From an uncultured Helicobacter sp. (GTDB taxonomy: Bacteria > Campylobacterota > Campylobacteria > Campylobacterales > UBA6016), in contig CAZMPN010000005.1 of NCBI GenBank assembly GCA_964568395.1, positions 29,897 to 93,896 on the forward strand: a stretch of 64,000 nucleotides of DNA. Reading direction: 5' to 3'. Shown here piece after piece: positions 2,318 through 62,869 of the stretch. The translations under genes and the position numbers were made by a program. A model generated the notes under the pieces. It saw only the letters and a list, made by a program, of their open reading frames with translations. It did not search any database and was not told the origin of the DNA. Numbering within the stretch: the first letter of the stretch is position 1; the number at the start of each line of letters is the position of its first letter.

Positions 2318-2318
2318 G

Positions 2319-6071: not shown

Positions 6072-6125
6072 GCTTTCCAGCTCATCTTGGATAAAATAAC
6101 AAAAAACAAAGTAAAGGCTTGAAGT

Positions 6126-8288: not shown

Positions 8289-8292
8289 TTTT

Positions 8293-9387: not shown

Positions 9388-9390
9388 TTT

Positions 9391-11566: not shown

Positions 11567-12711
11567 GCCAATTGCCGTTCACAAAAATAAAGATATTCGT
11601 TCACACTAGATGTTTTTGATAATTCGATAGCCCTATTATACGAAGCTTTTGCATATTTCAAGCCGACGCTTTCATCAAAAACAACACTTTTAACGGCATT
11701 TGCCAAACTTTCACCATCATCTATCGCAACCAAAATACCGAAATCTGAGTACTCTATATCGCCTTTGCTCAAACAAGATGAGCGTCCATTGATAGATATA
11801 ATCTCCATAGGCCCAGTCTTACAATCTGTAGACACAATAGGAAGCCCGCAGGACATTGCCTCCACTAAAACATTTGGAAAGCCTTCGTATTTTGAAGAAA
11901 GCACAAAAACATCGGCACGAGCCATATACTTGAAAGGATTTTTTACTCTTCCGGCAAAATAAACCCTCTCAGACAAACCGTATCGAGAGATAAAATCCTC
12001 AAGATTCAATCTGTTTTCCCCGTCGCCCACGATAATCAAGCGAATATCTTGCGGCAGCAGCATCATAGCTTCCAAAATCATAATCTGATTTTTTTGGTCG
12101 TCCAATCTACCGACCGTAACTATATATTTATACCCATCTTCGAATATCCCACTATCAAGCTCCTCTTTTGACATTTCTTCTATCGCCGCAATATCAAACG
12201 GATTATAAACGACCTTTGAATTAACCGGTTTACCAAGAAAATTCTCCATGTCGGCAACCATTGCCTTTGATTTAAATATAAACATATCCGCAAAAGGGTA
12301 AAAAATCTTAATTAACGCAAGATTTATTATTTGGCTTTTAAAAAAATCGATAGATATAACCTCTACAGCATGAGTTTTATGCCTCGCGCCAAAAAGCTTT
12401 GCGGCGATATTTACGATATTTGCCCTAAACATATGCGACTGCACCAGCTCTATTTTATTTTTGAAAATGTATCTCGCAAGCCTAAATGCCAATATAGGCA
12501 AAAATAAAAGCTTCACGATTTTAGACTCTTTGCCGTCAAAATTACTAAGATAGGTTATTTTTATAGAGGGCGGTATCTTATAGAAAATATTTTTTTCTAT
12601 GCATACGAGTTCTACGTCGCAATCCATTGCGGCCGCAGCCGAAAGAATCACGGATACAACTCTCTCCGAGCCTCCGCCCCCCAAAGAGTTTATAAAAATA
12701 GCGCTCTTCAA
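11563..12711 (-). CDS. glycosyltransferase, GT4 family
   Basis: 382 aa. GGGGSERV N-terminal motif and LSSKYEGFPNVLVEAMSCGLPIVSTDCKTGPMEI. Confidence 0.8.
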   Translation of the reverse strand: MKSAIFINSLGGGGSERVVSVILSAAAAMDCDVELVCIEKNIFYKIPPSIKITYLSNFDGKESKIVKLLFLPILAFRLARYIFKNKIELVQSHMFRANIVNIAAKLFGARHKTHAVEVISIDFFKSQIINLALIKIFYPFADMFIFKSKAMVADMENFLGKPVNSKVVYNPFDIAAIEEMSKEELDSGIFEDGYKYIVTVGRLDDQKNQIMILEAMMLLPQDIRLIIVGDGENRLNLEDFISRYGLSERVYFAGRVKNPFKYMARADVFVLSSKYEGFPNVLVEAMSCGLPIVSTDCKTGPMEIISINGRSSCLSKGDIEYSDFGILVAIDDGESLANAVKSVVFDESVGLKYAKASYNRAIELSKTSSVNEYLYFCERQLA

Positions 12712-14345
12712 GACGTTCTCCGCATCTTAAGGCTCCACTCCGACAAAGCCCACTCTTTTAGCCCCAAAGAGCCGTTTTGGAAAATTGCCCTTTCGCCTAT
12801 ATTAAACCCAAATCCCATTTTCGGCCTATATAAAATAGAGGCGTCAATATCGTCTTTAAACGCCTCTTTTAATATTGCTTTGCCATATCTGTTTCGTTTG
12901 TCAAAAAGCCTGCCGACTTTATACTGTGGGGCTATTTTAAAAGCCGTCTCGACAAGCTTATAATCCAAAAACGGGGATCTTGCCTCAACCGAATTCGCCA
13001 TCGCACATACGTCGCCTATAAGCGTTATGGAGTGCGCATTTTCCAAAAAAAACGCGAAGGCATTGGAGTAATCTATAAAGTTTCTTTTCTCAAAAGCCCT
13101 GAAAAATTCATCGTATTCGGCAAACAAACTCTCCAAAACATCCTCTTTGGTCCTTGAGAGCCTTTTTCTCTTGAGGTCACTGTTTTTAAATAGCCCAAGC
13201 AACTTTGAGGCAAAAAAGGTCTTCGGATGTGAATCGTAGCCGTAGAAAAGCTCGTCTGCACCATTACCGTTTAATACGACTTTGATACCATCTTTTCGAA
13301 TGAGGGAATATAAAATATCGGCATAAACCATCGGCATAATCGCAAGAGGTTCTCCATATACCCCTATAATATTTGAAAGACCCGCTACCTGCGCATTATC
13401 AAAATGAAACTCTTCCAGCTCGACGCCCATAGACTTGGCGACTGCTCTCGCCCGCACAAGTTCCTCATCATCGGCGTTTGCCCCAAAAGCATACGCCTTA
13501 AAATCGATAGATAGTTCTCGTTTTAGCACATGAGCCACGATAGTCGAGTCTACCCCGCCTGATAAAAGCATTGAAATAGGCACGTCGGAAACGCTGGCAT
13601 ACGACACCGCCTCGACAACTCTATTTTTTAGCCCACCAGGCGTTATCTCTTCATAGTCACCTTCGATTTTCCAATAAAAGCCTGTTTTTTTAACTTCACC
13701 TGATTTAATCAGCATATAGCTGGCCGGTTTTAATTTTGAAACGCCCCTTATGACAGAAAAAGGATCCGGAATATGTCTAAAGTTTCCCATAGAATAAAGC
13801 TTGATAGCCTCTTCATTAATGGCAAACTCGATAATACCGCTATTTAAAAGCGCCGGGATTTCGGAGGCAAACAAAAACCCGTCTTTTGTTTTTGTATATA
13901 CGAATGGTTTTTCACCGACCCTGTCTCTAGCGCAAAAAAGAGTATCGTTTTTTTCGTCATATAAAGCGAATGCAAACATGCCCCGTAAATAAGAGAGCAT
14001 ACCCTCTCCGAACTCCTCATACAAACAAGGCAAAACCTCTGTATCGCTATTTGTTTCGAGTTTGTAGCCCCTTGACAAAAGCAGGCCGCGAAGTTCGCGG
14101 TAGTTGTATATCTCGCCGTTAAAAACTACCGTATAACCGTTTTTACAAAACGGCTGCGACGCTTTTTGGCTCAAATCTATAATACTAAGTCTATTATGTG
14201 CTAAAAATAGCTTTTTATCATCTGATAAAAAAAATCCGCTTCCATCCGGTCCCCTGTGACTCATGCCAAGAGAAGCAGACTCTAGGCTATTTTTCAGTCC
14301 ATCATCGATAGGCTTTTTTGAGAAATATCCGAAAATACTACACAT
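12708..14345 (-). CDS. asparagine synthetase B-like glutamine-dependent amidotransferase, paralog 1
   Basis: 545 aa. Ntn nucleophile Cys2 (MCSIFGYF), glutaminase region HNRLSIIDLS, and PP-loop LLSGGVDSTIVA. Confidence 0.8.
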   Translation of the reverse strand: MCSIFGYFSKKPIDDGLKNSLESASLGMSHRGPDGSGFFLSDDKKLFLAHNRLSIIDLSQKASQPFCKNGYTVVFNGEIYNYRELRGLLLSRGYKLETNSDTEVLPCLYEEFGEGMLSYLRGMFAFALYDEKNDTLFCARDRVGEKPFVYTKTKDGFLFASEIPALLNSGIIEFAINEEAIKLYSMGNFRHIPDPFSVIRGVSKLKPASYMLIKSGEVKKTGFYWKIEGDYEEITPGGLKNRVVEAVSYASVSDVPISMLLSGGVDSTIVAHVLKRELSIDFKAYAFGANADDEELVRARAVAKSMGVELEEFHFDNAQVAGLSNIIGVYGEPLAIMPMVYADILYSLIRKDGIKVVLNGNGADELFYGYDSHPKTFFASKLLGLFKNSDLKRKRLSRTKEDVLESLFAEYDEFFRAFEKRNFIDYSNAFAFFLENAHSITLIGDVCAMANSVEARSPFLDYKLVETAFKIAPQYKVGRLFDKRNRYGKAILKEAFKDDIDASILYRPKMGFGFNIGERAIFQNGSLGLKEWALSEWSLKMRRTS

Positions 14346-15267
14346 TTTTTACCAACAGTATGGATGTTGGGTAAAACTTCGCAAAACGCAAAAAACGATA
14401 CGCCAAAAAACTAAGCCCGATACGGCGCATAATTTTTAAAATTCCGCCGACAAAAGCGTATCTCCCGGACAACCTATACTCTCCGAAAAATATTTTTTTT
14501 AGCTTCCACTCTTCCGTTATGTTTGCGACTATCTCAAAGCCGTGCTTTTTAAAACTCTCTTCGAGTTCATTTGCGCTCATTAGATTGAGCCAATCAACAA
14601 ACGAGTGGGCATCGCGGTTTTTTAGCTTTCCTAGAAGTTTGCCTATTAGCTTTATCTGCGGCTTCGAGGGCTTAGGCAATGTAGGTATCGCAAGATGGGG
14701 CTCAAACGGAAACAGATAGTTTGGAGCCTCCACGACTATCAGCGCATCTTTTTTTATAACTCTTTTGAGGCTTGCGAGCATTGCTTCAAAATTCGCTTTC
14801 GAACCTAAATGTTCGACTATGTCTTTTAAAAAAACAACGTCGAAATAGGCGTCGTACATCTTAGGCAGTTGCTCAAGAGTAATAGCGTTACCCTCTATAA
14901 ACACGGCATTTTGCACGTTTTTATATTTTTTATAGCTATCGGCGAGAGATACTGCCTCTCTCTCCAAATCCACCCCCACGATATTGGCAAAATATGGCGC
15001 AAAGGAGAAAGAGATTGGGCCGCAACTGCATCCCAAATCAAGAGCGTTTTTGGACTTTAAATCCGCAAACTCCGGCACGAATTCCCGTAAAAACTCAAAA
15101 AATTCGGCGTGGAATTGCTCGTTTGAAAACATGGCGTCTAAATCTATATCATCAAACTCCCTATCCAAATGACCGTAAATATTTGTCTTTTTGGATAAAA
15201 ACGCTCTTAGCGACTCTTGCAATTTACCATTATCCATTTTTTGCAAACACCGTTTTGTAGACAACAT
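14338..15267 (-). CDS. class I SAM-dependent methyltransferase
   Basis: 309 aa. Motif I ALDLGCSCGP. An alternative start at 15237 (MDNGKLQ) would remove the 38-nt overlap with the upstream gene. Confidence 0.7.
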   Translation of the reverse strand: MLSTKRCLQKMDNGKLQESLRAFLSKKTNIYGHLDREFDDIDLDAMFSNEQFHAEFFEFLREFVPEFADLKSKNALDLGCSCGPISFSFAPYFANIVGVDLEREAVSLADSYKKYKNVQNAVFIEGNAITLEQLPKMYDAYFDVVFLKDIVEHLGSKANFEAMLASLKRVIKKDALIVVEAPNYLFPFEPHLAIPTLPKPSKPQIKLIGKLLGKLKNRDAHSFVDWLNLMSANELEESFKKHGFEIVANITEEWKLKKIFFGEYRLSGRYAFVGGILKIMRRIGLSFLAYRFLRFAKFYPTSILLVKNV

Positions 15268-16615
15268 TACAAGCTTTCAGACAGATAAATACTGCATATA
15301 AAATAGCTATAGACAAGGCAATGCCCACAAGCTGCTGCAAGAGCCCTAGAATAAACCCACTTCTTATAATATTGAACGCTTCACCGAAAAACCACAAAAA
15401 TAGCGCAAGAGACAGCGTACTTGTAAGTTTAAATTTATTTAGAAATCCGTAAAACGCCCCCGTTAGGAGAGGAAATAATATAAGCCCTACGATACCGAAA
15501 GACAAAGCCGCATATCCTACAAAACCGAGCGGGAACCTGCCACAGTTAAAACCAGATTGAGCATACAGCTCCGGGTAAATTAAATTTTGAAACAGCATAT
15601 CGCCATATATATCTGGCTTGCTCGGCCAGAGCGCACGAGGAATATATGAGGCAAAAATATCAGCTAAAGATTGGAAACCTACTATTCCAAGCGGATGCTC
15701 TTCTAATGGGTATTTAAAAATTGCATTACTACTGTGCCAGAAAGAGTCAAAAGAGCTAACAAAAACATATAATATTCGACCTACTTCATAAATTGAAAAC
15801 TCTCTAGACGTTTTATTAAATAAAGTTTCATAGACTATGCCTTGATTAAACCTAAGGATTATTAATATGGTAATAATCCCGAGCCCGCCAAAAACAATAT
15901 GCCTATTATTTATATGTCCCTTGATATACAAAAGAAGCAAAAAAAGCATAATCGGCATAACAAAATATCTTCTGCTGCCATCCAAAAAATTAAATATCAA
16001 CATATTTACACAAATTATTGTTATCGCATACACTATAAAAAGTTTTTTTTGTGGCTCCAAAAATAATCTAGCAATCAACAAGACTATACAAAACCAAATA
16101 AAAAATGAGAATAAAAAAACTATATACCCCTTGCCGTAAAAAAACGATAACTGCCCAGTAGGTAATCCAGAGCTAAACCTTAAGTAAAAAACATAAGCTA
16201 CTATTTTTAAAAGCGTAACAACGGCAAGGGTGAGCAATAAAATTTTGGAATCAAATAAGGTATTAATGCGTGCGGTCGTATCTCTTAAGAAAATATTACC
16301 GATAAAGCTCGAGCTGCTGGATGCCATAAATCCATAAAAAAATATCAAAAACACTACGGTTGCCAAAAATACAACAAAAATGTCGTTTAAATAGCTATAT
16401 GGATAATCAGCAAATCTACCCATGCCAGACACCTGCAATACATAGAAACAAAATGGAAAAGACAAAAAATAAAGCAGTGAGAATATATAGAGTGGATTTG
16501 AGAAATCTATTCCAAACCCCCTATTTGGAGAAGGGTTTTTGCGCACATACCACGCAAGGGGGAGAAGCATCGCAATTGTAGCTATCGCAAAAGCTGCAAA
16601 AGGCGACAAAATCAC
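15230..16615 (-). CDS. Wzy-like oligosaccharide repeat-unit polymerase (polytopic membrane protein)
   Basis: 461 aa. More than 10 predicted hydrophobic segments, very AT-rich, no soluble domain. Located inside a Wzx-containing locus. Family assignment is by context only. Confidence 0.5.
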   Translation of the reverse strand: MILSPFAAFAIATIAMLLPLAWYVRKNPSPNRGFGIDFSNPLYIFSLLYFLSFPFCFYVLQVSGMGRFADYPYSYLNDIFVVFLATVVFLIFFYGFMASSSSSFIGNIFLRDTTARINTLFDSKILLLTLAVVTLLKIVAYVFYLRFSSGLPTGQLSFFYGKGYIVFLFSFFIWFCIVLLIARLFLEPQKKLFIVYAITIICVNMLIFNFLDGSRRYFVMPIMLFLLLLYIKGHINNRHIVFGGLGIITILIILRFNQGIVYETLFNKTSREFSIYEVGRILYVFVSSFDSFWHSSNAIFKYPLEEHPLGIVGFQSLADIFASYIPRALWPSKPDIYGDMLFQNLIYPELYAQSGFNCGRFPLGFVGYAALSFGIVGLILFPLLTGAFYGFLNKFKLTSTLSLALFLWFFGEAFNIIRSGFILGLLQQLVGIALSIAILYAVFICLKACNVVYKTVFAKNG

Positions 16616-18366
16616 TTTTTCTCCAACAGATAGTTCTCAATCGCCATAAATTTTAGGCCGCTGTTTTCAAACGTAAAGATGGCTTGTTCTATCGTAGCAA
16701 CAAGCGGATACCCGTGCAGATTGAAAGACGTATTCATCACGCCGCCAATTCCGGTCAGCTCTCTAAATTTTGATATTAAAGCATGGTACTCCGAATTTGT
16801 ATCTTTTTTTACTATTTGCGCACGGAGCGTCTTGTCAGCCTGGTGCGTAGCGGCTCTGAGATGTTTCCTGCCCAGCTCCGTAGAGTCAAAAGCAAGTATC
16901 ATATACGGCGCATCCGTATTTTTCGGATTTATAAAGTAATCTTTCGCACACTCTTCCAAAATAGAAGGAGCAAACGGCATCCAAAAGTCTCTTTGCTTGA
17001 TCATGTCGTTAACTTCAAAAAAGCTCTCCAGACTGCTAGGATTACCCAAAATCGCTCTATTGCCGAGGCTTCTGGCACCCCACTCCGCCCTACCTTTAAA
17101 CCTCGCGACTATCTTAAACCCGGCGAGTATTTCCGCTATTTTGGACTCCATATCTTCGATATAAGAAACCGTATATTTGTTTTCAACTCCTTGTTCGTCT
17201 ATGTATCTTTTGACATCGTCGTTTGAAAACTTCGGCCCCATATATACGTCTTTAAAAGGCATCGTATTTTCGTTGTGTTTTGCGGCTACATAAAAAGCGG
17301 CGCCGAAAGGATTCGACTCATCTCCGCAAGAAGGCATAAAGTGGCACTCTGCCACCTGAGGCATCTCCATAATTTTCTTGTTCATTTTGACGTTCATAAA
17401 CACTCCACCGCCAAAATAAACGTTATTAATTCCGGTTTTTTCTATCGCATTGGCGACCCATCTAACAACCATATCTTCGAGTAGCATTTGAGCGGCGGCG
17501 GCTATATTGTCAAATCTCTCGCCGACGGCATTTTTCTTCAAATAGGTGTCAAATCTGTTCGTAGGCACGCTTGTTTCGAAGCTAAGGCCGTCTTTTGAAA
17601 GCCAAATCACGTCTTTATAGATTTTCTCGTACACCTTTGCCGCATACTTCTCTTTTGCGTAAGGAGCAAGCCCCATGACCTTATATTCATGCTCCAGCAC
17701 CTTCATGCCCAAAAATCTGGTCGTATTGGAGTATATGCTTCCCAGAGAACACATAGAAGGGCTGCTTGCTATTTGGCGTATTTCGCCGTTTTCGTATACG
17801 CTGACAGTAGAGCTATCGTGATCTCCCGATCCGTCGGCCGTAAAGATAAGGGCTTTTTTGTTTTTGTTTTTGCAAAGCGAATAAAAAGCGGAATATGCGT
17901 GGCAGGTATGATGATCCACTTTCACGACCTTGGAGTATTCGAGCCCACACTCTTTTAAAAGTTTTTTAAACTCCGCCTCTCCAGCGTTTGCAAGCTTTTT
18001 TGCCCTTTGCGCGTCAAGCCATATAAAAAGTTTTGGCGCAAACTTGAAAAATCTATACTGTGCAAACGCGTAAAGCGACTTTAAGAGCTCTTTTGCAAAA
18101 CCGCCCCTATCCAACTGCTGGTTTTCACGGAATAGATATTTTGTGGCCATCGACGGAAAAATCATGCTGGATGAGTTTGCGATGACGTCTATCTCGTTCG
18201 GGCTTATGCAAAATTCTTTCAATATCCACTCTATCGCATCTTTTGGAAACGCGGACGAATTTTTAACATTGTCGAATTTCTCCTGGCTAACCGCCCCCAA
18301 TATGGCGCCGTCTTTATATAGGGCTACCGTAGCGTTATGCCCGAGCTGCAAAGCCAATATTATCAC
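16612..18366 (-). CDS. carbamoyltransferase (NodU/CmcH family)
   Basis: 584 aa. N-terminus ILALQLGHNATVALYKDGAILGAVSQEKF, plus HHTCHAYSAFY and the family-typical length. Confidence 0.8.
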   Translation of the reverse strand: MIILALQLGHNATVALYKDGAILGAVSQEKFDNVKNSSAFPKDAIEWILKEFCISPNEIDVIANSSSMIFPSMATKYLFRENQQLDRGGFAKELLKSLYAFAQYRFFKFAPKLFIWLDAQRAKKLANAGEAEFKKLLKECGLEYSKVVKVDHHTCHAYSAFYSLCKNKNKKALIFTADGSGDHDSSTVSVYENGEIRQIASSPSMCSLGSIYSNTTRFLGMKVLEHEYKVMGLAPYAKEKYAAKVYEKIYKDVIWLSKDGLSFETSVPTNRFDTYLKKNAVGERFDNIAAAAQMLLEDMVVRWVANAIEKTGINNVYFGGGVFMNVKMNKKIMEMPQVAECHFMPSCGDESNPFGAAFYVAAKHNENTMPFKDVYMGPKFSNDDVKRYIDEQGVENKYTVSYIEDMESKIAEILAGFKIVARFKGRAEWGARSLGNRAILGNPSSLESFFEVNDMIKQRDFWMPFAPSILEECAKDYFINPKNTDAPYMILAFDSTELGRKHLRAATHQADKTLRAQIVKKDTNSEYHALISKFRELTGIGGVMNTSFNLHGYPLVATIEQAIFTFENSGLKFMAIENYLLEKK

Positions 18367-19619
18367 TTAACTCTTCTCCATGAATACGCTTGAAGCAAAA
18401 CGCCAAGCGTCAAAAAATAACAAATATATCCAGCAAAAACAGAGGCCTCATGCAGAGACTCTAAAAAATAGTAAGCAGACGCAAATTTGACGCCTATCCC
18501 GGCAAAAGATAAGAAAAACAGAAATTTATATCCGCCGTCGCTAAAAACAAACGAGCTATCTACTTTTTCCGCTAACATAAAAATCATAGCCAATGAAGCA
18601 AACGCAAAATAGTCGATGTTTGCGCCACTCCACCCAGTCCATAGCAAGACTATATCTTTTCCTGCAAAAGTATACAAAATTCCAGCCAACAAACCGGCCG
18701 CCAAAACGGCTATTTTTTGTAACAGATATGCTTTTTTTCTACTTTTAAGTTCGCCGGATACGCCCATTTTCACCATAAAAGGCTGCGAAACTTCCGGTAT
18801 TTTAGAAAGAAGTATCACAAGAAATCCGGGGATTTGCCAGATAACCGCATAATAGGCTGCATACTCGGCTTTACCGCAATATGCTAGAAAAACCGCATCG
18901 AGTCCGAAGCTCAAAAGAGAAATAGAGTAAAAAAAGTTCCACTTCCCGACTTTGCCCAAAAAATCGGACACAACCTCTTTTGTTATCATGCCTACCTTGG
19001 GCAGCGCTATCTTTTTTGAAACAGCAAGGGCTACGCATAGAGTAAAAACGGATATAAAAAGGGCGGCGAAAGGAACGGCCAAGCTATTCGAAAAATAAAG
19101 CCCGACCAAAGACGCAATCAAAAACAGTGCGGCTTGCACGCTTCTTAGAATATTTGCCGCAGACTGTTCGTTAAGCGCGGTAAGATTGGCGAAATAGCCT
19201 TGAAGCGGATAGTTAAACAGAAAGTAAAATGCCAAAACAATAATACATATAGCTATTATTTTATCATTCACAAACATTACGTATAAGCTTGCCAAAACGA
19301 ACAAAATAACGCCGTATAGGACGTATGCGCCGTAGACGAGAGATTCGGCGGATTTAAGCTTATTGTTTTGCGTAGACGCTTTGTAGCCGCCTATTGCCAC
19401 GATAGCCGCGCCGCCTATCCATCCTATGCCTATGGCCGCATATTGGCTAACGGAATAAATAGCCGTGTAGACGCCAAAGTTTCTGGCCCCTAGGATATTC
19501 AAAAAAAGAGGAGTCAGTATAAACCCGGAGATAGCCAAAACAAACACCCACAAATACGAGGATGCCAATGCCTTTAAGTAATGGCTTCTCAAATAGAGTT
19601 CCTCAGATTTTTTAGCCAT
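18363..19619 (-). CDS. second Wzx/MOP-like polysaccharide transporter (polytopic membrane protein)
   Basis: 418 aa and hydrophobic throughout. N-terminus LKALASSYLWVFVLAISGFILTPLFLNILGARNFGVYTAIYSV resembles flippase N-termini. Assignment is tentative. Confidence 0.45.
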   Translation of the reverse strand: MAKKSEELYLRSHYLKALASSYLWVFVLAISGFILTPLFLNILGARNFGVYTAIYSVSQYAAIGIGWIGGAAIVAIGGYKASTQNNKLKSAESLVYGAYVLYGVILFVLASLYVMFVNDKIIAICIIVLAFYFLFNYPLQGYFANLTALNEQSAANILRSVQAALFLIASLVGLYFSNSLAVPFAALFISVFTLCVALAVSKKIALPKVGMITKEVVSDFLGKVGKWNFFYSISLLSFGLDAVFLAYCGKAEYAAYYAVIWQIPGFLVILLSKIPEVSQPFMVKMGVSGELKSRKKAYLLQKIAVLAAGLLAGILYTFAGKDIVLLWTGWSGANIDYFAFASLAMIFMLAEKVDSSFVFSDGGYKFLFFLSFAGIGVKFASAYYFLESLHEASVFAGYICYFLTLGVLLQAYSWRRVK

Positions 19620-23407: not shown

Positions 23408-23413
23408 ATTTTG

Positions 23414-42308: not shown

Positions 42309-42357
42309 GCCAAAGCCTCCATATCAATAAAAAGAAATTGCGAACCAAGCTATAAGC

Positions 42358-42927: not shown

Positions 42928-42939
42928 ACCAAAGCCCCG

Positions 42940-44591: not shown

Positions 44592-44596
44592 ACTGT

Positions 44597-45974: not shown

Positions 45975-45998
45975 ATTAAACCTTTCTTTTAATCAGTG

Positions 45999-49551: not shown

Positions 49552-49552
49552 A

Positions 49553-50791: not shown

Positions 50792-50792
50792 A

Positions 50793-53408: not shown

Positions 53409-53410
53409 AA

Positions 53411-55113: not shown

Positions 55114-55720
55114 TAAAGTTTTCTAAGATTTTCAATCCGTCTCTTTGGCTTTTCTCTGGGTGAAACTGTAACCCAACTATATTGTCCTTTCTTATACCTG
55201 CAACAAAATCTATCCCATATGAAGAACTTGCTATTGCATTATCCTTGTTTGATGGCACAAAATGGTAACTGTGGACGAAATATACTATTGGCTTTTGAAG
55301 ATTTTGAAAAACTGGATCACGCTCATCCACGCTCAACTCATTCCAGCCCATATGTATTTTGCGCATCTTGCCTCCGAAATCACCAAAAGGCTCCACGCTT
55401 CCGCCAATAAGCCCGAGGCCGTCATGCTCTCCGAATTCATAGCTCTTTGAGGCCAAAAGCTGCATACCAAGGCATATTCCAAGAAACGGTTTTTTGAGCT
55501 TATTGGCATATTCTTGAATTGTATCGGTAAGCCCAAATTCTCGTAAATTTTTCATGCCGTCACCGAACGCTCCAACACCAGGGAGAATGGCGCCGCTTGA
55601 AGCAAAAATCTCATCTTTGTTTCTTGTCAAAATTGCACTATGCCCTATTTTTTCGATAGCGCCAATAACCGATGCGACATTTCCGATTCCATAATCTATA
55701 ACTGCTATTTGTTTTTGCAT
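55100..55720 (-). CDS. HisH-like class I glutamine amidotransferase paralog (WbuY / Cj1315c-like)
   Basis: 206 aa. IAVIDYGIGN, nucleophile elbow GICLGMQLL, and FHPEKS. Confidence 0.85.
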   Translation of the reverse strand: MQKQIAVIDYGIGNVASVIGAIEKIGHSAILTRNKDEIFASSGAILPGVGAFGDGMKNLREFGLTDTIQEYANKLKKPFLGICLGMQLLASKSYEFGEHDGLGLIGGSVEPFGDFGGKMRKIHMGWNELSVDERDPVFQNLQKPIVYFVHSYHFVPSNKDNAIASSSYGIDFVAGIRKDNIVGLQFHPEKSQRDGLKILENFIGMC

Positions 55721-55726
55721 TTGTGT

Positions 55727-56836
55727 TTAAAGCGGACTTCTAAGTTTCCATCGACCATTATCTAAATGCCAAAGCTCTTTATTTCTGTGCTTATCGACAA
55801 TATCATCAAATTCTGCTTCGGTCAAACTTAGATACTCTAGTACTTCCTTCAGGTGTCGCCTAGGAAACTCGCCGTCATATTTTCTGCAAAGTTCCAACCC
55901 TTCCTCTCTATCCAAATGCCCATTTTGTATCATTCTGCTGGCATCCCTAATAGCCCTGCCGAAACCAAACTTTACATACTGCATATAGTAATACAAATCG
56001 TCGATTTTATCATCAAGACTATCATGTCTTGTAAAAGTACCTTCGGATCTACCGCACGGACTCTCTTGAAAATCTATATGTTTTTTTACATACTCATAGT
56101 TAGACCATTGATCCCACTTGAAAAAATAACTCATATATACAGCTTTAACGCCGGCTTTTTGCACATCCTCCAAATCAGGATAAATATAGTGATTCAAGTC
56201 TTTCTCGCTAACCACATCATCAACCCAATTTCTAGGATCATCGCCTATCATATTTTCCAAAACTTCCGAAAAATCCCTTATCATATCTGATTTATCGTGC
56301 AGTTTATTGCCGCCGTATTCCGTTTCGCCATGCTCAGAGTAAAATACAAGAGGTATTTTATAGTTTGTGGCAACCCTAATAAGAGGACAATTAACGCCTG
56401 CATCCCAGTGAACCTTAGGGTTGCCTCTTTCTATGAAAAATCTCCTGGCGAGATGTCTAGAAACTTTAATATTTGTTGCGATAAACACGCTATCAAATCC
56501 ATGTTCAAGCAAAATACGCCTATTGTGCTCCCCAACCTCGGTTGGCATAAGAGGATTGAACGTTACGAGCAAAGGATTCATATTATATTCTGTTTTTAGC
56601 TTTATAGCATTGGCGGTGCTATCCTTCCCTCCGCTCCACGGAATAATACAATCCCAATATCCATCATCCCTTCTATGCGCATCCAATAGCGCCTTAAGTT
56701 CATTTTCTCTTTCTTGCCAGTCTATAATTTTATTTTTCATTGTTTCAGCATAATTGCAAGCATTACAAACGCCGTTTTCATCAAAAACAACTCTTGGCCT
56801 AGTGTTTGGCATAAGGCACTTTTTACAATATTTCAT
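55727..56836 (-). CDS. N-acetyl sugar amidotransferase, PP-loop ATPase (WbuX / WbpG / PseA-like)
   Basis: 369 aa. MKYCKKCLMPNTRPRVVFDENGVCNACNY zinc-ribbon N-terminus and PP-loop PWSGGKDS. Confidence 0.85.
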   Translation of the reverse strand: MKYCKKCLMPNTRPRVVFDENGVCNACNYAETMKNKIIDWQERENELKALLDAHRRDDGYWDCIIPWSGGKDSTANAIKLKTEYNMNPLLVTFNPLMPTEVGEHNRRILLEHGFDSVFIATNIKVSRHLARRFFIERGNPKVHWDAGVNCPLIRVATNYKIPLVFYSEHGETEYGGNKLHDKSDMIRDFSEVLENMIGDDPRNWVDDVVSEKDLNHYIYPDLEDVQKAGVKAVYMSYFFKWDQWSNYEYVKKHIDFQESPCGRSEGTFTRHDSLDDKIDDLYYYMQYVKFGFGRAIRDASRMIQNGHLDREEGLELCRKYDGEFPRRHLKEVLEYLSLTEAEFDDIVDKHRNKELWHLDNGRWKLRSPL

Positions 56837-56888
56837 ATTACTCGTCTTTGTTTTTTTAATTATAAAAGTATTAAATTATATAGCATCG
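56837..56888 (-). promoter_or_regulatory. 52-nt AT-rich gap with minus-strand TATAAT (56880..56875); candidate internal promoter for the amidotransferase module
   Basis: The minus strand reads GCGATGCTATATAATTTAATACTTTTATAATTAAAAAAACAAAGACGAGTAAT then ATG. The TATAAT lies about 39 nt upstream of the start. Sequence only. Confidence 0.25.
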
Positions 56889-57728
56889 CTACTTATTTAT
56901 ACAGAACTCGACAGCCCTAATTTTCATATCAATCGTATCAAAAACAATATCTTCTTTTTTAAGTCTAGATTCGTCAAATACAATTTCTGCTTTCCAAATA
57001 ACAATTTTACTGCCATCTGGCAAATACGCAAATGCTCCAGGATAAGGCTTTGTAAGGGCTCTTATAAAGTTATATACGTCCAGTGCGCTTCTTTTAAAAT
57101 CTATCTCGCCGTCAGCAGGCGTTCGTTTCGGATAGGCAGGGTAATTTCTTGATGGGTTGTGAAGTCTTAATGCGGTACCGTTTGCAATTTTTGGCAAAAA
57201 TTCCACTATAAGGTCCGCACCCGCTTTGGCTGATTTTTTATAAACCGTATTGCAATCATCATTCAGCATGATAGGAAAGGCTTTTTGCGCGATTATATCT
57301 CCAGCATCTGCATCTTCGGTTAGATAAAACATTGTTATTCCTGTTTCTTTCTCCCCGGCTATAATAGCCCAATTTACAGGCGCCCTGCCTCTATATTTCG
57401 GGAGTAACGATGAATGAAAACCTATGGTTCCAAGCTTTGGAATATCAAGTATCTCTTTACAAACAAGTCTTTGCCATCCGCATACTATTATTAAATCAGG
57501 ATTGATAGATTTTATTTTTTCTATATATTCAGGCTCATTGAGATTCTTTACTCTTACCAGTGTGCTTTCGTGAGCATTAGCCAGAGGCTCAAAGTCTATA
57601 AAACCGGATGTCTGTTCTTTTTTATCAAAATCTAGCGTGAATATCGCATCAACGGCAAATCCTGCATCATAGACGGCCTCCAAAACTGTATACCCTATCT
57701 CAACGGAACCTATAAAAACCAACTTCAA
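56889..57728 (-). CDS. formyltransferase (Fmt/ArnA N-domain-like sugar N-formyltransferase)
   Basis: 279 aa. HSSLLPKYRGRAPVNWAI folate-dependent formyltransferase signature. Shorter than housekeeping Fmt and embedded in the sugar pathway. Confidence 0.8.
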   Translation of the reverse strand: MKLVFIGSVEIGYTVLEAVYDAGFAVDAIFTLDFDKKEQTSGFIDFEPLANAHESTLVRVKNLNEPEYIEKIKSINPDLIIVCGWQRLVCKEILDIPKLGTIGFHSSLLPKYRGRAPVNWAIIAGEKETGITMFYLTEDADAGDIIAQKAFPIMLNDDCNTVYKKSAKAGADLIVEFLPKIANGTALRLHNPSRNYPAYPKRTPADGEIDFKRSALDVYNFIRALTKPYPGAFAYLPDGSKIVIWKAEIVFDESRLKKEDIVFDTIDMKIRAVEFCINK

Positions 57729-57729
57729 T

Positions 57730-58401
57730 TTATAAGCTCCCTACACCTATTTTTCTGACCAGCTTAAAAGGCTCCGCGTATTCAACGCCTACGGTTAATC
57801 CCCAATAGTTTGCATGCACTCTTAGAGCCTCGGGGCTTCTTGGATGCGGGTAAGGCCTGCATTCGCTGGGATATCTTTTCATAGCTTCTATTTTGGCGTC
57901 AATCTCATCTTTTATATCCACAAAAATATTAGGCACAAACATTTTTGCCAAATCCGTCATATTCCATTCGGTAGACGATGGCACATTATACGAATACACC
58001 TCTTTCACTACTTGGCCAACTATCGGTCTTGTAGCAGTAAAAGTCGCTTCGGCGAGTATCTGATGGTCCTTGTTTAGATCGTTTGCAAAATGCGTAAAAA
58101 CTCTATGCGGCTTCAGGCTTGCAATATATGCTTCGATGGACTGAATAATATTACTCAAAGGTATGGTTTCCAGTTTTTGGTTTGGAAAGCTCTCAAAAAA
58201 AAGCTCTTTAGTACCAATTAACCTATTCGCATCTTTCGCATTCTGCCTAAGCTTCTCTTCCATATCTCCTGAGTATCTACCGTCGGCACCCCCAGTCATT
58301 ATTACTACAAAAAAATCCTCTCTAGAGGATAGTTTTTTTATAATGCCGCCGCAGCCAAGTATTTCATCGTCAGGATGCGCCGCTATAATTAAATTAGTCA
58401 T
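57730..58401 (-). CDS. PIG-L/LmbE-family N-deacetylase
   Basis: 223 aa. IAAHPDDEILGCGG signature at the N-terminus and a later HxxH-type region (DLNKDHQIL). Confidence 0.85.
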   Translation of the reverse strand: MTNLIIAAHPDDEILGCGGIIKKLSSREDFFVVIMTGGADGRYSGDMEEKLRQNAKDANRLIGTKELFFESFPNQKLETIPLSNIIQSIEAYIASLKPHRVFTHFANDLNKDHQILAEATFTATRPIVGQVVKEVYSYNVPSSTEWNMTDLAKMFVPNIFVDIKDEIDAKIEAMKRYPSECRPYPHPRSPEALRVHANYWGLTVGVEYAEPFKLVRKIGVGSL

Positions 58402-59182
58402 TATTCCACCTATGCAAAACAGTGATTGTTTTATTTATTTTTTTAAAGCCGTTTTTGATATAGAAATTTAATGCAGAAATATTTTTTGCTTGCGTTTCAG
58501 TATAAATATTTCTATTTTTAAGTGTGTCAAGCACATGACACATCATGATGCTTCCGATATTTTTACCCCTAAAATTATCCAATACAGACACAAAAAAAAC
58601 TGTAGATTTTTCATCGCAACAGTTAACAAGAATAGTGCCGCACGGCATCCCTCCTGATAGCGCAACAAACATTTTATGATTGCTATCTATTTCATAGTTT
58701 TTAAGATAGCTCACCCATAGTTCATCGGCTTTATTGTTCTGTATGTTTATATCAGTGTGAAATCTTGTTAGCTCAAATACCGATCCTAATTGATCATATG
58801 GAAGGCCTGCATTTACGGCCTTCTCCTCAATTCTTATATCTGAATCTTTATGCCAAATTAATTCATTGGCGTCAAACTTTAACTCTATCTCGGTGTCAAC
58901 ATAATAAAAACCGCATTTTTGCAAAAAATAAACTATTTCATAGTTTGATTGGGTGTCTATTTTTGCGCTAATAAAAGCACCCCTAAACTTGCTTTCAATT
59001 TCTTCGGCCAATTCTTCAGATGGCTCAAAATTTGATTTTGAAACATCTAATAAAAAACAAGGTTTATTAAAAAAAGAGCTATCCCATTCCAAATATTTGA
59101 AGTAAATATACTTAGCCCTCTTTGCTACAAGTTCTTTAAAAGCGGATGCCGATTCGCTATCTTGATAATCTATAAAAATCAC
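58394..59182 (-). CDS. GNAT-family N-acetyltransferase (PseH-like position)
   Basis: 262 aa. C-terminal GNAT core VSVLDNFRGKNIGSIMMCHVL...ALNFYIKNGFKK. Lies directly downstream of the PseG-like gene. Confidence 0.6.
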   Translation of the reverse strand: MIFIDYQDSESASAFKELVAKRAKYIYFKYLEWDSSFFNKPCFLLDVSKSNFEPSEELAEEIESKFRGAFISAKIDTQSNYEIVYFLQKCGFYYVDTEIELKFDANELIWHKDSDIRIEEKAVNAGLPYDQLGSVFELTRFHTDINIQNNKADELWVSYLKNYEIDSNHKMFVALSGGMPCGTILVNCCDEKSTVFFVSVLDNFRGKNIGSIMMCHVLDTLKNRNIYTETQAKNISALNFYIKNGFKKINKTITVLHRWNND

Positions 59183-60156
59183 AAAATTTCCCTTATGCTA
59201 TCAGACAAGATATTGGCTTCAAAAATATCTTTTGTAAACATCGGCTTAAATGTATCTACCGCCAAATTAAGCTCTTGGGCATCAAAGCTTTTAAATCCAA
59301 TATACTTCGCCTGATTCTCACTCTCAAAATATTTACATCTTGCCACTTGGTGTTCGTAGGTAGCTATAAGGGCACACGGGGTTTTGGAGGCAACCAGCTC
59401 CGATGACGTAAGCCCGCCTGCGCCTATTGCAAAATCGCAAGCTAAATACTCCGATAGCATATCCTTAACATTTACCTTTATCTCGTACTTTATACCTCTT
59501 TTGTTCAAGTCATCTTCAAGTTTAGCTTTCTTTTCGTATCCCGCCCCAACAATAATAACCAACTCTCTGCCTTCGCAACCTATGGCATGCGCAACTTTTG
59601 ACGTAAAATCAAACTCATCTGCTCCGCCCATAGCTATTAATATTTTTTTTCTAGCGGCCGAGTATTTCCTATTTTTTATATCATCGGAATAAAAAGCCTT
59701 CGCCAGTATTACATATTTTGGGCCAAGTAAAAATTTGGTATTGGGAAACTTATTTATATCGTAGTATTTATAGGCATCAACATCCCAATTAATTACCAAT
59801 TTTATGGATTCTGGTATAAAACCGTCAAAATTTACACACAACGTTGGAATATTATTATTTAATCCAATATACTCAGTAAGCTTTCGCTCAGTAATCTCAA
59901 AAAAAAGCATATCTATGCCGTATTCGTCAATTAGCATATTAATAGCCGCCACATCCTCTTCAACACCCGCATCTTCATTAAGCCAGAATACATTTTTAGG
60001 CTTACGTTGTTCAACGATTCCCTTGGCTGCTGCGGTTTGTTGCGTCAAAAAAAAACAATCAAATTCCGACAAATATTCACTAAGCGTAATAAGAGACATT
60101 AAATCGCCTATTCCTATGGATGGTTTTGCATCTGCACGGAATAGTATTTTTTTCAT
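59179..60156 (-). CDS. PseG-like nucleotide-sugar hydrolase (GT28 C-terminal-like, GT-B fold)
   Basis: 325 aa. MKKILFRADAKPSIGIGDLMS matches the PseG-type N-terminal pattern (FRxDxxxxIGxG), and the C-half has GGADEF...AIGAGGLTSSELVASKTP. 1-nt overlap with the synthase gene. Confidence 0.6.
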   Translation of the reverse strand: MKKILFRADAKPSIGIGDLMSLITLSEYLSEFDCFFLTQQTAAAKGIVEQRKPKNVFWLNEDAGVEEDVAAINMLIDEYGIDMLFFEITERKLTEYIGLNNNIPTLCVNFDGFIPESIKLVINWDVDAYKYYDINKFPNTKFLLGPKYVILAKAFYSDDIKNRKYSAARKKILIAMGGADEFDFTSKVAHAIGCEGRELVIIVGAGYEKKAKLEDDLNKRGIKYEIKVNVKDMLSEYLACDFAIGAGGLTSSELVASKTPCALIATYEHQVARCKYFESENQAKYIGFKSFDAQELNLAVDTFKPMFTKDIFEANILSDSIREIL

Positions 60157-61211
60157 TAAAGTATAACGCTCCAGTTTATAGGATCCTCGAAAGCTATATC
60201 GCTTTTTGCGGTTATTGTATTGGCTTCAAAAAGACTAATATACTTAGGCTCAAGACCTGGTCTTTTTTTCCCGGGTCTTAAAATACTTAAATCTTCAACC
60301 TTTATGATCTCTCCTTTTTTAATATTTCTTCTCGCAAAAAGAGTCATGTAGCAAAAATCTCTAAGATATTTTTCGTGCTCATGGCATATTTTGGCACTTG
60401 AGCCATATATTATGCTATCCAAATAGACAGAGTTATTTTCATATTTTTCTCTTGCAGTGTTAATATCGGCAACCATTTTTGAAAGCTCATCCGGTTCAAG
60501 AGCAAAAAAGTGATCTGGTCCACTCATCTTTTTATCCAATGTAATATGCTTTTCTATTACGGTAGCACCCATATATACTGCCTGTATAGGAGCATCGGAA
60601 ATCTCAAAAGTATGATCTGAATAGCCTATTGCAACCTCAGGAAATGCATATTTAAGGGTATTTAAAACACCCATATTTACTTCATTAAGAGGTGTGGGAT
60701 ATTTGATAGAACAGTGAAGAAGGGTTATATCGTTATGATATTTCTGGACGCACCTTACGGCCTCTTCAGTTTCGGCCAGCGTTGAACCCCCGGTACTCAT
60801 AATAATCGGAAGTTTGGTTTTTGCGGCAGCCTCTATTAAAGGTAGATTGGTTATTGTGTATGATGAAAGCTTAATTATTTTCATACCTTTTTTGACCAAA
60901 TACTCCAAACCTTCAATGTCAAAAACAGATGCCATAAAATCAATATTTTTTGATTCACAGTAAGGCATGATAGTGTCAAGCCATTCTGGCGGCAACTCAA
61001 AAGCCTTAACTGCGCTATGTATATCATAACTATATTCTTTATCGGCATCTTTCCAGTCCAGCTTGCCAGCAGTGGTAGGGTACATACCGTTCGCGGTAAA
61101 AAACTGAAACTTTGCGGCGTGGCATCCTGCGTCAACACTCGCATCTATCATTTTTAAACAGTTCTCCAAAGAACCGTTAAAATTTATTCCTATCTCGGCA
61201 ATAATATACAT
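60156..61211 (-). CDS. nonulosonic acid synthase (NeuB/PseI/LegI family)
   Basis: 351 aa. MYIIAEIGINFNGSLE...AAKFQ TIM-barrel N-terminus, GYSDHT, and C-terminal SAF-like EDLSILRPG. Confidence 0.9.
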   Translation of the reverse strand: MYIIAEIGINFNGSLENCLKMIDASVDAGCHAAKFQFFTANGMYPTTAGKLDWKDADKEYSYDIHSAVKAFELPPEWLDTIMPYCESKNIDFMASVFDIEGLEYLVKKGMKIIKLSSYTITNLPLIEAAAKTKLPIIMSTGGSTLAETEEAVRCVQKYHNDITLLHCSIKYPTPLNEVNMGVLNTLKYAFPEVAIGYSDHTFEISDAPIQAVYMGATVIEKHITLDKKMSGPDHFFALEPDELSKMVADINTAREKYENNSVYLDSIIYGSSAKICHEHEKYLRDFCYMTLFARRNIKKGEIIKVEDLSILRPGKKRPGLEPKYISLFEANTITAKSDIAFEDPINWSVIL

Positions 61212-62869
61212 TATTTAACTCCGTATGCCTTTTTCCAATCATCTAAAACCATATTCTTATAGGCATCCCTATTATATTTGCCTTTTTTATCCCACTCAAA
61301 CCACTTATTTACAGGCGCAGAAAAGCCTCTCTTGTCTATACGATCGCATATTTCTTTTGGAATAAACTTTCTGGCCACTTCTTTAAGCGCCCACTTTGTA
61401 ATACCGTCTTTTATTTTGTATTTAGATGACATCGAAAAAGCAAACTGCACAAGACGATAATCCAAAAACGGTGAACGGTTTTCTATGCTAAATGCCATAG
61501 ATAGTCTATCGGCCATCTGTAAAAGCACCTGCATTGTGCTGTAAAAATCGTTTAGCCCCATGGCATGGACTACATCTTTTTGCATCTTATCAAAATAAAA
61601 TCCGATACTTTCGTTCAAAAACTTGAGCACCTTCGCATCATAAGGATTTTCGCATCTATTGACTAGTTTTGTATATCTATCTACAGGGGAACCATAATAT
61701 CTATTTATCAGATAGCTATACTGTTTCATAGCCTCCAATGAGTGTATCTGTTCATCGTGGTGCAAAAGGTGATATCTATGGTATCCCCCAAAGACCTCAT
61801 CGGCGCCATCGCCTGCCATCATCACCTTGACACCATCTTTTTTTACTCTCTCTAGAAGCATCCACAGCGTAAAACTCGTCCATGTGCAAGGCGTATCAAG
61901 ATGATAGGCTATCTGCTCTCTGGTACGTAAAAAATCTTCTTTATTTGGCTCAACGACGATAAGCTCTTTTTTTATCTGCTTTGCTACCAGTCTCGCGTAG
62001 TCCAGTTCATTAAAATCATCATAATCGTAATGCGCCGTATAAAGATAATCAGGCTTTGCAATACATGCGACCAAAGAGCTGTCTATACCGCCGCTCACAA
62101 AAGCCCCGAAACTGTGGGCGCAGTTTTTGGTTCTAAGAAGAATAGAATCCTCGACAAGCTCGGCAAGAGAGCTTACAATCTTGTTTTCATCGTCAGGTAG
62201 CTCTATTAGATTATCCCATATTTTCCAATAGCTTTTAATGCTGGCTTTGCCGTTTTTGACATGTATATATTCGCCTGGCTCAAGCAGATAGACGTCCTTA
62301 AAAAGAGTCTCTTTGCCGGTAGTAAATTCATACGCCTTATAAGAAACGGCCTTATCGTTAAACTTTGGTTCTATGAGCCCTATGAGCGACTTTATCTCAC
62401 TAGCAAAAGCAAAAAAATCTTTTCCTTTTACATAATAAAGCGGTTTTTCTCCCACCTTGTCTCTAACTATAAATGTTTCGTTCTTCTTTTTATCATGTAC
62501 CGCAAAAGCGTACATCCCATTATATTCTTTAAATGCGTCTACGCCTTTGTCCACGAAACTAACCATTGCAGTCTCTGTATCAGACCCCGTCTTAAAAGCA
62601 TATTTGCCGAGATTTTTTCTTATCTCTTCATGGTTATATATTTCACCATTATAGACTATCGCAAAATTACCGCTACTATCTTCATAGGGGATATGGTGCT
62701 CAACGGTGTCTATAATAGATAAGCGTACCATCCCTATAGTAGCATCGCCATATGTTGCCAACCCGGACTGGTCTGGGCCCCTATGGACACCCTTGTCGAG
62801 CATGTTCTGGACTATCGTCTTTGTATCATAATCCCTATTTTTACTAATAAAACCAGCTATACCACACAT
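61211..62869 (-). CDS. asparagine synthetase B-like glutamine-dependent amidotransferase, paralog 4
   Basis: 552 aa. MCGIAGF (Cys2), MVRLSIID, and PP-loop FVSGGIDSSLVAC. Confidence 0.85.
   Translation of the reverse strand: MCGIAGFISKNRDYDTKTIVQNMLDKGVHRGPDQSGLATYGDATIGMVRLSIIDTVEHHIPYEDSSGNFAIVYNGEIYNHEEIRKNLGKYAFKTGSDTETAMVSFVDKGVDAFKEYNGMYAFAVHDKKKNETFIVRDKVGEKPLYYVKGKDFFAFASEIKSLIGLIEPKFNDKAVSYKAYEFTTGKETLFKDVYLLEPGEYIHVKNGKASIKSYWKIWDNLIELPDDENKIVSSLAELVEDSILLRTKNCAHSFGAFVSGGIDSSLVACIAKPDYLYTAHYDYDDFNELDYARLVAKQIKKELIVVEPNKEDFLRTREQIAYHLDTPCTWTSFTLWMLLERVKKDGVKVMMAGDGADEVFGGYHRYHLLHHDEQIHSLEAMKQYSYLINRYYGSPVDRYTKLVNRCENPYDAKVLKFLNESIGFYFDKMQKDVVHAMGLNDFYSTMQVLLQMADRLSMAFSIENRSPFLDYRLVQFAFSMSSKYKIKDGITKWALKEVARKFIPKEICDRIDKRGFSAPVNKWFEWDKKGKYNRDAYKNMVLDDWKKAYGVK

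Follow-up and report, generated by a model that had tools for sequence, protein, structure and literature searches.

Four AsnB-type genes in a surface-glycan locus

The window analyzed here (64,000 nt of contig CAZMPN010000005.1 from an uncultured Helicobacter sp., assembly GCA_964568395.1) covers most of a locus of approximately 66 kb. Pfam and NCBIfam scans of the open reading frames (ORFs) revealed that this locus consists of surface-glycan genes which are almost entirely co-directional. It contains four genes for AsnB-type glutamine amidotransferases, designated A1 to A4 (Table 1). All four are intact, they are not redundant with one another, and they are members of glycan modules, a membership that is conserved in other organisms. 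With a probability of roughly 60%, the four modules employ four AsnB-family enzymes on different, module-defined acceptors, in each case for the conversion of a carboxylate to an amide.

The original prediction, made from the DNA sequence of the window, had described four AsnB-type ORFs, and translation recovered all of them with the predicted coordinates, lengths, Met-Cys starts and PP-loops. The genes are located on the minus strand, and the plus-strand translations are riddled with stop codons. The neighbours had been described accurately, with A1 between a methyltransferase and a family 4 glycosyltransferase (GT4), A2 between manC and a family 2 glycosyltransferase (GT2), A3 upstream of a 714-aa bi-domain oxidoreductase, and A4 between a UDPG_MGDP_dh-like ORF and a NeuB gene.

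Table 1. Genes and gene blocks discussed in the text. Positions refer to the window unless a locus number is given.
Feature	Position	Strand	Evidence and remarks
GT2	6126-7070	+	Pfam, E 1.6e-39; sole plus-strand gene in the locus
Two GT4 and WecA/WbpL-type initiating transferase	9391..12711	-	Pfam; downstream of A1
A1, AsnB-type amidotransferase, 545 aa	12708..14345	-	MCSIFG; SGGVDS 262-267; Pfam, NCBIfam
GT2, GT4, Wzx flippase, carbamoyltransferase, 461-aa membrane protein, methyltransferase	14338..21509	-	Pfam
Carbamoyltransferase (NodU/CmcH-type)	16612-18366	-	Pfam
A2, AsnB-type amidotransferase, 639 aa, long form	21488..23407	-	MCGIAG; SGGVDS 273-278; Pfam, NCBIfam
UDP-GlcNAc 2-epimerase	26866-27957	-	Pfam
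GT4	27950-29161	-	Pfam
Heparinase II/III-like	29158-30732	-	Pfam
Bi-domain oxidoreductase (ADH_zinc and GFO/IDH/MocA), 714 aa	30722-32866	-	Pfam
A3, AsnB-type amidotransferase, 613 aa	32878..34719	-	MCAILG; SGGIDS 255-260; Pfam, NCBIfam
PIG-L deacetylase, formyltransferase, WbuX, HisH, HisF	54352..58401	-	Pfam; TIGR03573
GNAT	58394-59182	-	Directly follows the PseG-like gene, downstream of A4
PseG-like hydrolase	59179-60156	-	NCBIfam PseG, below equivalog cut-off
NeuB-family synthase	60156-61211	-	Pfam NeuB, 3.7e-73
A4, AsnB-type amidotransferase, 552 aa	61211..62869	-	MCGIAG; SGGIDS 259-264; Pfam, NCBIfam
UGDH-family dehydrogenase-like gene	62869..64000	-	Truncated by window end; no in-frame stop to 63999
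AsnB of the A4-sister clade, next to a WbuX-like gene	L003 16996-18924; L010 13087-14946; L011 13765-15636; L013 15166-17049

The minus-strand array is nearly gapless from the window end down to approximately position 7050, and further minus-strand glycan genes reach position 2319. In the direction of transcription it begins with the UGDH-like gene, which is cut by the window end, followed by A4, NeuB, the PseG-like gene and a GNAT gene. After these come PIG-L, a formyltransferase and WbuX-HisH-HisF, and then genes for a methyltransferase, a cytidylyltransferase, a GFO oxidoreductase, a DegT protein, a GNAT protein, a PhyH protein and several methyltransferases and glycosyltransferases. A3 is followed by the bi-domain oxidoreductase, the heparinase II/III-like protein, GT4 and the UDP-GlcNAc 2-epimerase, behind which gmd, fcl and manC are located. 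A2 then precedes GT2, GT4, Wzx, a carbamoyltransferase, a membrane protein and a methyltransferase, and A1 leads the last group of two GT4, a WecA-like transferase, DegT and Wzx.

The G+C content is 0.32–0.46 within the locus versus 0.47–0.52 in the flanks, the latter range being reached below approximately position 9400. A mosaic glycan locus would be expected to have such a low and uneven G+C content. The start and stop codons of all four AsnB genes overlap or abut those of their neighbours; the stop of A1 overlaps the start of GT4 by 4 nt, and the dehydrogenase-like gene and A4 share a single base (62869). Judged from this arrangement, all four AsnB genes are translationally coupled to glycan genes and apparently operonic.

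A sister strain, represented by a 498-kb Logan contig, keeps all four AsnB genes. In this strain the locus begins about 4 kb past the position of the window end and opens with an ABC transporter, a cytidylyltransferase, a radical S-adenosylmethionine (SAM)/SPASM protein, DegT, the dehydrogenase-like gene and A4, and a cation ATPase on the opposite strand marks the locus boundary. No fifth AsnB gene is present in these roughly 4 kb of the sister strain. Among relatives that carry a name, the closest are Sulfuricurvum kujiense and metagenome-assembled genomes (MAGs) labelled ‘Helicobacteraceae’ or Campylobacterales. We propose that the locus was built from several horizontally mobile modules, four of which would each have imported their own anciently diverged AsnB-family enzyme.

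Divergence, catalytic residues and copy number

The pairwise identity among A1 to A4 is only 30–34%, which excludes recent duplication. In a neighbour-joining tree built from 94 AsnB-family sequences, the four paralogs each stand at the head of a separate deep clade that also holds their respective orthologues, and none of the four clusters with the distant group of E. coli-type housekeeping AsnB. Recent tandem duplicates, which would have spoken for redundancy, are ruled out by the low identity together with the separate clades, and the non-redundancy that had been predicted is borne out by these features and by the acceptor-loop signatures described below. The A1 family is the rarest of the four: 4–6 of approximately 20,900 family representatives belong to its clade, and outside its own cluster no homologue exceeds 48–49% identity. 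The tree also contains a second AsnB-type clade, sister to A4, which is absent from the window. In other organisms its genes follow the A4 module and lie next to a WbuX-like gene (Table 1).

GATase_7/GATase_6 and Asn_synthase Pfam domains were detected in all four proteins with E-values from 1e-30 to 1e-105. The scores on TIGR01536 were 373 bits for A1, 476 for A2, 412 for A3 and 384 for A4 and all exceeded the cut-off of 267, whereas PRK09431, the model for E. coli-type AsnB, yielded 230–277 bits at a cut-off of 499, which none of them reached. The four proteins scored 153–230 bits on NF033535 (cut-off 525) and 31–72 bits on NF033561 (cut-off 300), two models for the branch of lasso-peptide cyclases, beta-lactam synthetase and macrolactam cyclases, and none of them matched the WbuX/PseA-type model TIGR03573.

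The catalytic residues were assessed by alignment of A1 to A4 and their families, using E. coli AsnB numbering. The glutaminase residues C1, R49, N74, G75, E76 and D98 are conserved across all four paralogs and their families, and the same applies to the SGGxDS motif, D351, E352, Y357, K429 and K449. The equivalents of K376, D384 and R387, which we take to be the proposed aspartate-binding residues of AsnB, are not conserved in A1 to A4, in a region where the alignment is weak. The loop that aligns with AsnB 314–332 (ETYDVTTIRAS), and that presumably contacts the acyl-adenylate, differs completely: each family has a loop of its own, which is strictly conserved among its members. The signatures are LDTPCTWTSFTLWMLL for A4, FDEPFGNPT for A3, YDEPFGDSSAIPTY for A2 and EPl.LLq for A1. 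Such family-specific loops are what distinct acceptor pockets would be expected to look like.

Copy number was determined by counting the AsnB-type ORFs within about 20 kb; each locus included had an AsnB-family gene at its centre and a length of at least 15 kb. A first sample comprised 42 loci, mostly from species-representative genomes; 31 of these contained one copy, seven contained two and three contained three, while one contained none. The second sample comprised 21 metagenome loci, among the matches listed, from a scan for the A1 family with generic patterns (FNGEIYN, ARDRxGEKP). These matches were rejected as A1 orthologues, as they are relatives of only about 30% identity. Among them one copy was present in 15 loci, two in four, three in one and four in one. 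Altogether, 46 of the 63 loci were single-copy and 16 carried two to four copies, including the one with four. Thus, the copy number of the Helicobacter locus is high, but not exceptional for a locus of 66 kb. The earlier statement that one copy per locus is the norm describes the majority state correctly, but about a quarter of the loci are multi-copy.

The locus with four copies (L087; L numbers designate the compared loci) holds them within 15.5 kb (6151-21665), L003 has three in 16 kb, and at least two fall within 12 kb in Campylobacter hyointestinalis. Among the multi-copy loci are several clear glycan loci. Spread over about 66 kb, the four copies of the Helicobacter locus are not unusually dense, and their number, although above average, is precedented; the locus carries a common pattern to an extreme and does not represent a novel type of system. 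Further contigs with three or four AsnB-type ORFs in 8–18 kb are L026 (3454-11902) and L096 (1179-19022), and in L026 two of the ORFs are arranged in tandem (7970-9874 and 9968-11902).

Modules surrounding the paralogs

Orthologues of A4 with 65–93% identity occur in Campylobacterota, Desulfobacterota, Nitrospirota (Ca. Magnetominusculus), a gammaproteobacterial MAG and Omnitrophota. They are part of a unit of five genes in invariant order, which encode a CTP_transf_3 (KdsB-like) protein, a radical-SAM/SPASM (twitch) protein, a PseC/ArnB-like DegT protein, the UGDH-like protein and A4. This unit was found in every locus with enough upstream sequence, namely L002, L003, L010–L017 and L156 (5974-11659). 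NeuB, PseG-like and GNAT genes follow A4 in most loci (L002, L003, L009, L011, L012 and L013). In Ca. Magnetominusculus the five-gene unit stands alone among unrelated genes and without NeuB. Exact-sequence context look-ups for A4, the dehydrogenase-like ORF and an HD-GYP ORF returned no match.

The neighbourhood of A4 resembles the pathways for pseudaminic (Pse), legionaminic (Leg) and neuraminic (Neu) acids in its PseC-like aminotransferase, NeuB/PseI-like synthase, PseG-like protein, GNAT protein and CTP_transf_3 cytidylyltransferases. It differs from them in that no PseB/LegB-type 4,6-dehydratase is located there, and the radical-SAM/SPASM protein, the UGDH-like protein without the catalytic Cys and the AsnB-type enzyme are foreign to the described pathways. 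Every component of the A4 module scored below the NCBIfam equivalog cut-offs of the Pse, Leg, Neu and Kds models, and the same was true of the NeuB, PseI and PseG scores for the genes at 58394..61211. A description of the five-gene module was not found in the searchable literature, nor was a paper that links AsnB to nonulosonate genes beyond that on Tannerella forsythia. The gene context suggests that A4 acts within a divergent CMP-ulosonate or nonulosonate pathway and not in the late decoration of a uronate.

Following the precedent of BtrN and BtrS, where radical-SAM oxidation of an alcohol precedes transamination, the radical-SAM protein of the module may oxidize a secondary alcohol which DegT would transaminate, and the UGDH-like/AsnB pair would then produce a carboxamide. 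The A4 family might in this case mark an undescribed autonomous five-gene pathway, distributed over at least five phyla, which either feeds divergent NeuB/PseG/PseH enzymes or operates alone, and whose product may be a new class of CMP-activated ulosonic or nonulosonic acid with an extra amino group and a carboxamide. We regard this far-reaching proposal as doubtful. If it were true, AsnB-type chemistry would become part of nonulosonate biosynthesis. The cross-phylum A4 module is the best lead obtained here and a tractable experimental system.

The genes that follow the A4 module in the window include a WbuX gene which exceeds the TIGR03573 cut-off (341 versus 203 bits); WbuX, HisH and HisF are located at 54352-56836. 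The PIG-L to HisF group, which is distinct from the AsnB paralogs, points to the tailoring of a nonulosonate or amino sugar with N-formyl and acetamidino groups. PIG-L and formyltransferase genes likewise follow the A4 module in L011 and L012. In S. kujiense, ORFs of 365 and 590 aa without a Pfam match lie within the sugar-biosynthesis run (L002 12282-15148).

A3 is the first gene of a cassette. Its orthologues are 55–69% identical and were found in C. hyointestinalis, C. iguaniorum, Aliarcobacter, Arenibacter, Eudoraea and Pseudoalteromonas. The cassette of C. hyointestinalis (L157 11858-19070) has the same gene order as the window and continues with a UDP-sugar 6-dehydrogenase, which the window lacks; the partner proteins are 65% (oxidoreductase), 46% (heparinase-like), 62% (GT4) and 31% (2-epimerase) identical. 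In Arenibacter (L005) a UDP-sugar 6-dehydrogenase directly precedes the A3 orthologue. Pseudoalteromonas sp. A25 (L004 14411-19349) keeps the cassette with WbuX-HisH-HisF inserted, and it has an epimerase of the short-chain dehydrogenase/reductase type where the window and C. hyointestinalis have the UDP-GlcNAc 2-epimerase.

Based on the 2-epimerase/dehydrogenase pair of the orthologous cassettes, in particular that of C. hyointestinalis, the acceptor of A3 would most likely be a hexuronate of the N-acetylmannosaminuronic acid (ManNAcA) type. As a speculation, the heparinase-like protein with its lyase fold could be a uronate C5-epimerase. Nothing usable was found in the literature on AsnB together with heparinase-like genes or on O-antigen amidation. 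With its adjacent 2-epimerase/6-dehydrogenase pair, the C. hyointestinalis cassette offers a second tractable experimental system.

A2 and A1 flank a common block of genes (Table 1), which is mirrored in the metagenome contig L007. There, an A2-family gene (50% identity) and an A1-family gene (46%) enclose a comparable block in the order A2-like, two GT4, two methyltransferases, carbamoyltransferase, A1-like, and a UDP-sugar 6-dehydrogenase is co-located with it. L006 combines an A1-like gene with genes for a methyltransferase, GT2, GT4 and a carbamoyltransferase. A carbamoyltransferase, a SAM methyltransferase and GT4 genes accompany the A1 family in all three contexts available. The acceptors of A2 and A1 would be sugars in a repeat unit that the neighbouring block of GT2/GT4, methyltransferase and carbamoyltransferase genes assembles. 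The carbamoyltransferase genes are located at 15561-17300 in L006 and at 8245-9999 in L007, and a functional link with the A1 family is possible (n = 3). The 461-aa hydrophobic ORF of the window block (15230-16615) has no Pfam match and may be Wzy-like.

Proposed chemistry and alternative explanations

Enzymes of the AsnB family hydrolyze glutamine at Cys2 and channel the ammonia to the PP-loop domain, where a carboxylate is adenylated and captured by the nitrogen. In A1 to A4, glutamine would be hydrolyzed at Cys2 of the N-terminal class-II (N-terminal nucleophile, Ntn) glutaminase domain and the ammonia channelled to the C-terminal site. At the PP-loop domain of this site the carboxylate of a sugar or of a sugar substituent would be converted via an acyl-adenylate to a primary amide. 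We infer this amide-forming chemistry as well as the substrate of every paralog.

Genetic precedent exists for the amidation of uronates by AsnB homologues of glycan loci. In Porphyromonas gingivalis, deletion of PGN_1234 abolishes the glucuronamide form of the linking sugar of the type IX secretion system (PMC7468200), and WbqG is cited in the same paper as required for N-acetylgalactosaminuronamide (GalNAcAN) in E. coli O121. WbpS, WbqG and PGN_1234 are reported there to match TIGR03108 best. For Helicobacter pullorum, PMC6025236 describes knockouts of wbpO and wbpS which served to probe their role in the N-acetylhexosaminuronic acid (HexNAcA) and its amide (HexNAcAN) of the N-glycan. All of these proteins, including WbpS of Pseudomonas aeruginosa O6, share with A1 to A4 the two-domain architecture and the location in a glycan cluster next to glycosyltransferases. 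A2 and A3 are long forms (about 610–640 aa) with the highest TIGR03108 scores of the four, and A3 orthologues adjoin UDP-sugar 6-dehydrogenases. By analogy with WbpS and WbqG, formation of a uronamide is plausible for A2 and A3; a hexuronate would most likely be the acceptor of A3, and probably also that of A2. A1 and A4 differ from the WbpS type as short forms (545 and 552 aa) with 278–290 bits on this model.

Several observations weigh against such conversions. The scores on TIGR03108, the WbpS-related model, were 278 bits for A1, 535 for A2, 472 for A3 and 290 for A4 and all remained below the cut-off of 817, the likeness to WbpS being judged by model score. Furthermore, Pfam and NCBIfam scans detected no canonical UDP-sugar 6-dehydrogenase (PF03721/PF00984) encoded in the window, neither of the wbpO/wbpP type nor of the wecC type. 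The uronate source would consequently have to lie elsewhere in the genome, and this is the main weakness of the proposed amidation. The predicted amidation of uronates thus has its genetic precedent in other glycan loci, but in the window it lacks a uronate-forming dehydrogenase as well as a score above the WbpS-related cut-off.

The dehydrogenase-like protein next to A4 does not fill this gap. Its full-length orthologues comprise 438–440 aa and keep the N-terminal GxGxxG Rossmann motif, and the protein scored 71 bits on TIGR03026 at a cut-off of 190. Alignment to 4r16 revealed that the catalytic Cys and the Lys-Asp pair of UGDH are missing, GGHC-LPKD of UGDH being aligned with LLNHKNILH (L002 8679-10001). 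Consequently, a classical four-electron oxidation to a uronic acid by this protein appears unlikely, and the idea that it forms a classical uronate-then-amide pair with A4 was downgraded. Given that no canonical 6-dehydrogenase was detected and that these catalytic residues are missing, uronic-acid substrates are only putative for this locus.

The replacement of Glu348 is a further such observation. This residue of AsnB, a general base, is reportedly needed for acyl-adenylate formation; A2 to A4 carry Asp in its place, and A1 carries Asn at its residue 361. The original view that all four enzymes look catalytically competent agrees with the intact remainder of the catalytic residues, with this position as the one caveat. 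Inactivity of A1 owing to the Asn was considered and rejected. The Asn is invariant in the A1 family, with GNGADE unchanged throughout a 17-sequence alignment, and it is common among relatives: of the best 150 representatives related to A1, 53 have N at the position, 33 have D, 8 A, 7 H and 3 E. Since Asn, Asp, His and Ala are common there, the replacement is not evidence of decay or inactivity. It is rather widespread among glycan-associated AsnB homologues and argues for mechanistic variation.

Instead of an amide, the product of at least one paralog could be an amidine. Glutamine-derived ammonia would then attack the activated acetamido carbonyl of an N-acetyl amino sugar or of a nonulosonate, which would come to bear an acetamidino group. 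Such a reaction has been proposed for the T. forsythia AsnB homologue Tanf_01265, which would make the 5-acetamidino group of Pse (PMC6120980), and A4 is indeed located in a nonulosonate-type gene set, while AsnB genes of its sister clade adjoin a WbuX-like gene in L003, L010, L011 and L013. The T. forsythia assignment is, however, a proposal, and the asnB-wecC-wecB cluster described for this organism (PMC6120980) fits a uronamide equally well, wecC and wecB serving UDP-ManNAcA synthesis. Moreover, the window encodes a dedicated and complete WbuX-HisH-HisF acetamidino machinery, with WbuX above its cut-off, so amidine formation by the AsnB paralogs is less likely, and the coexistence of the Pseudoalteromonas A3 orthologue with WbuX/HisH/HisF implies a different role for A3. 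We know of no AsnB-family enzyme that forms amidines, and we consider the amidine explanation improbable. The four distinct conversions that had been predicted are in agreement with the four separate deep clades, whereas carboxamide formation by all four is a presumption, an amidine having been proposed for T. forsythia.

We give even less credence to the idea that one of the copies, most plausibly A2 or A4, is the cell's asparagine synthetase or a peptidoglycan-amidating AsnB which is located in the locus by chance or for co-regulation. AsnB homologues amidate meso-diaminopimelate in Bacillus, Lactobacillus and Corynebacterium, all four paralogs pass the cut-off of the TIGR01536 equivalog ‘asparagine synthase (glutamine-hydrolyzing)’, and the A4 orthologues are unusually conserved across phyla (65–75%). 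E. coli AsnB and human ASNS (PDB 1ct9 and 6gq3) are among the best solved-structure matches, share fold and chemistry with the paralogs, and have the glutaminase residues, the PP-loop, D351, E352, Y357, K429 and K449 in common with them. Against a housekeeping function stand the position of Glu348, the clade, the PRK09431 score, the family-specific acceptor loops and, within the weakly aligned region, the equivalents of K376, D384 and R387, as well as the glycan context with its apparent translational coupling. A4 in particular is always found within the same five-gene sugar module, even where this module stands alone. In the S. kujiense-like genome a separate AsnB of 601 aa (L002 1602-3407, minus strand), next to metK in divergent orientation and just outside the glycan locus, is the better housekeeping candidate.

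It is likewise very improbable that the copies are functionally redundant, or that some are decaying remnants of acquired modules, with fewer than four distinct reactions: the low-GC mosaic locus, the UDP-sugar dehydrogenase missing relative to the C. hyointestinalis cassette and the Asn of A1 would fit such decay, but all four reading frames have their full length and, apart from the Glu348 position, keep their catalytic residues, each family is under strong purifying conservation across phyla, the Asn is a family trait, the sister strain retains all four genes, and the pairwise identity of 30–34% speaks against recent duplication.

Carboxylate amidation on module-defined acceptors was further compared with other AsnB-related systems. 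Of the specific NCBIfam models, that of the XrtA/PEP-CTERM amidotransferase (TIGR03108, eps_aminotran_1) gives A2 and A3 their highest scores and matches them end to end. It represents an AsnB homologue of exopolysaccharide loci, sometimes present in several copies, but the paralogs scored well under its cut-off, and Pfam and NCBIfam scans detected no exosortase or PEP-CTERM genes in the window. The hydroxyamidotransferase TsnB9 (PDB 7ylz) is the top solved-structure match for A2 and A4. Beta-lactam synthetase and CarA share the adenylating PP-loop domain with weak matches (E 1e-4 to 1e-11), and on the lasso-peptide cyclase and macrolactam models A1 to A4 were far below the cut-offs, in a locus that offers no precursor-peptide or natural-product context. 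Beta-lactam synthetase, CarA and the lasso cyclases are not known to have a working Cys nucleophile, unlike A1 to A4, which keep it.

AsnB-type amidotransferases are among the commonest unassigned genes of bacterial surface-polysaccharide loci and are routinely misnamed ‘asparagine synthase’. The Helicobacter locus reveals several deeply separated, module-specific AsnB families, of which up to four are combined, and this provides a practical split for annotation. Conversion of a carboxylate to a neutral amide alters the surface charge, which bears on recognition by phages and the immune system and on cation binding. Current understanding is not overturned by anything found here.

Some minor features of the locus were also noted. 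A scan of positions 1-20000 for promoters and terminators gave a result near the shuffled expectation. The single plus-strand GT2 gene breaks the co-directional array and may mark a module junction. Two sizeable ORFs among the sugar genes, of 635 aa (47108-49015) and 324 aa (50793-51767), have no Pfam match. Finally, a gene of the PhyH family (Fe/2-oxoglutarate dioxygenase-like, 45999-47126) is located amid at least six methyltransferases and hints at an unusual hydroxylation or tailoring reaction.

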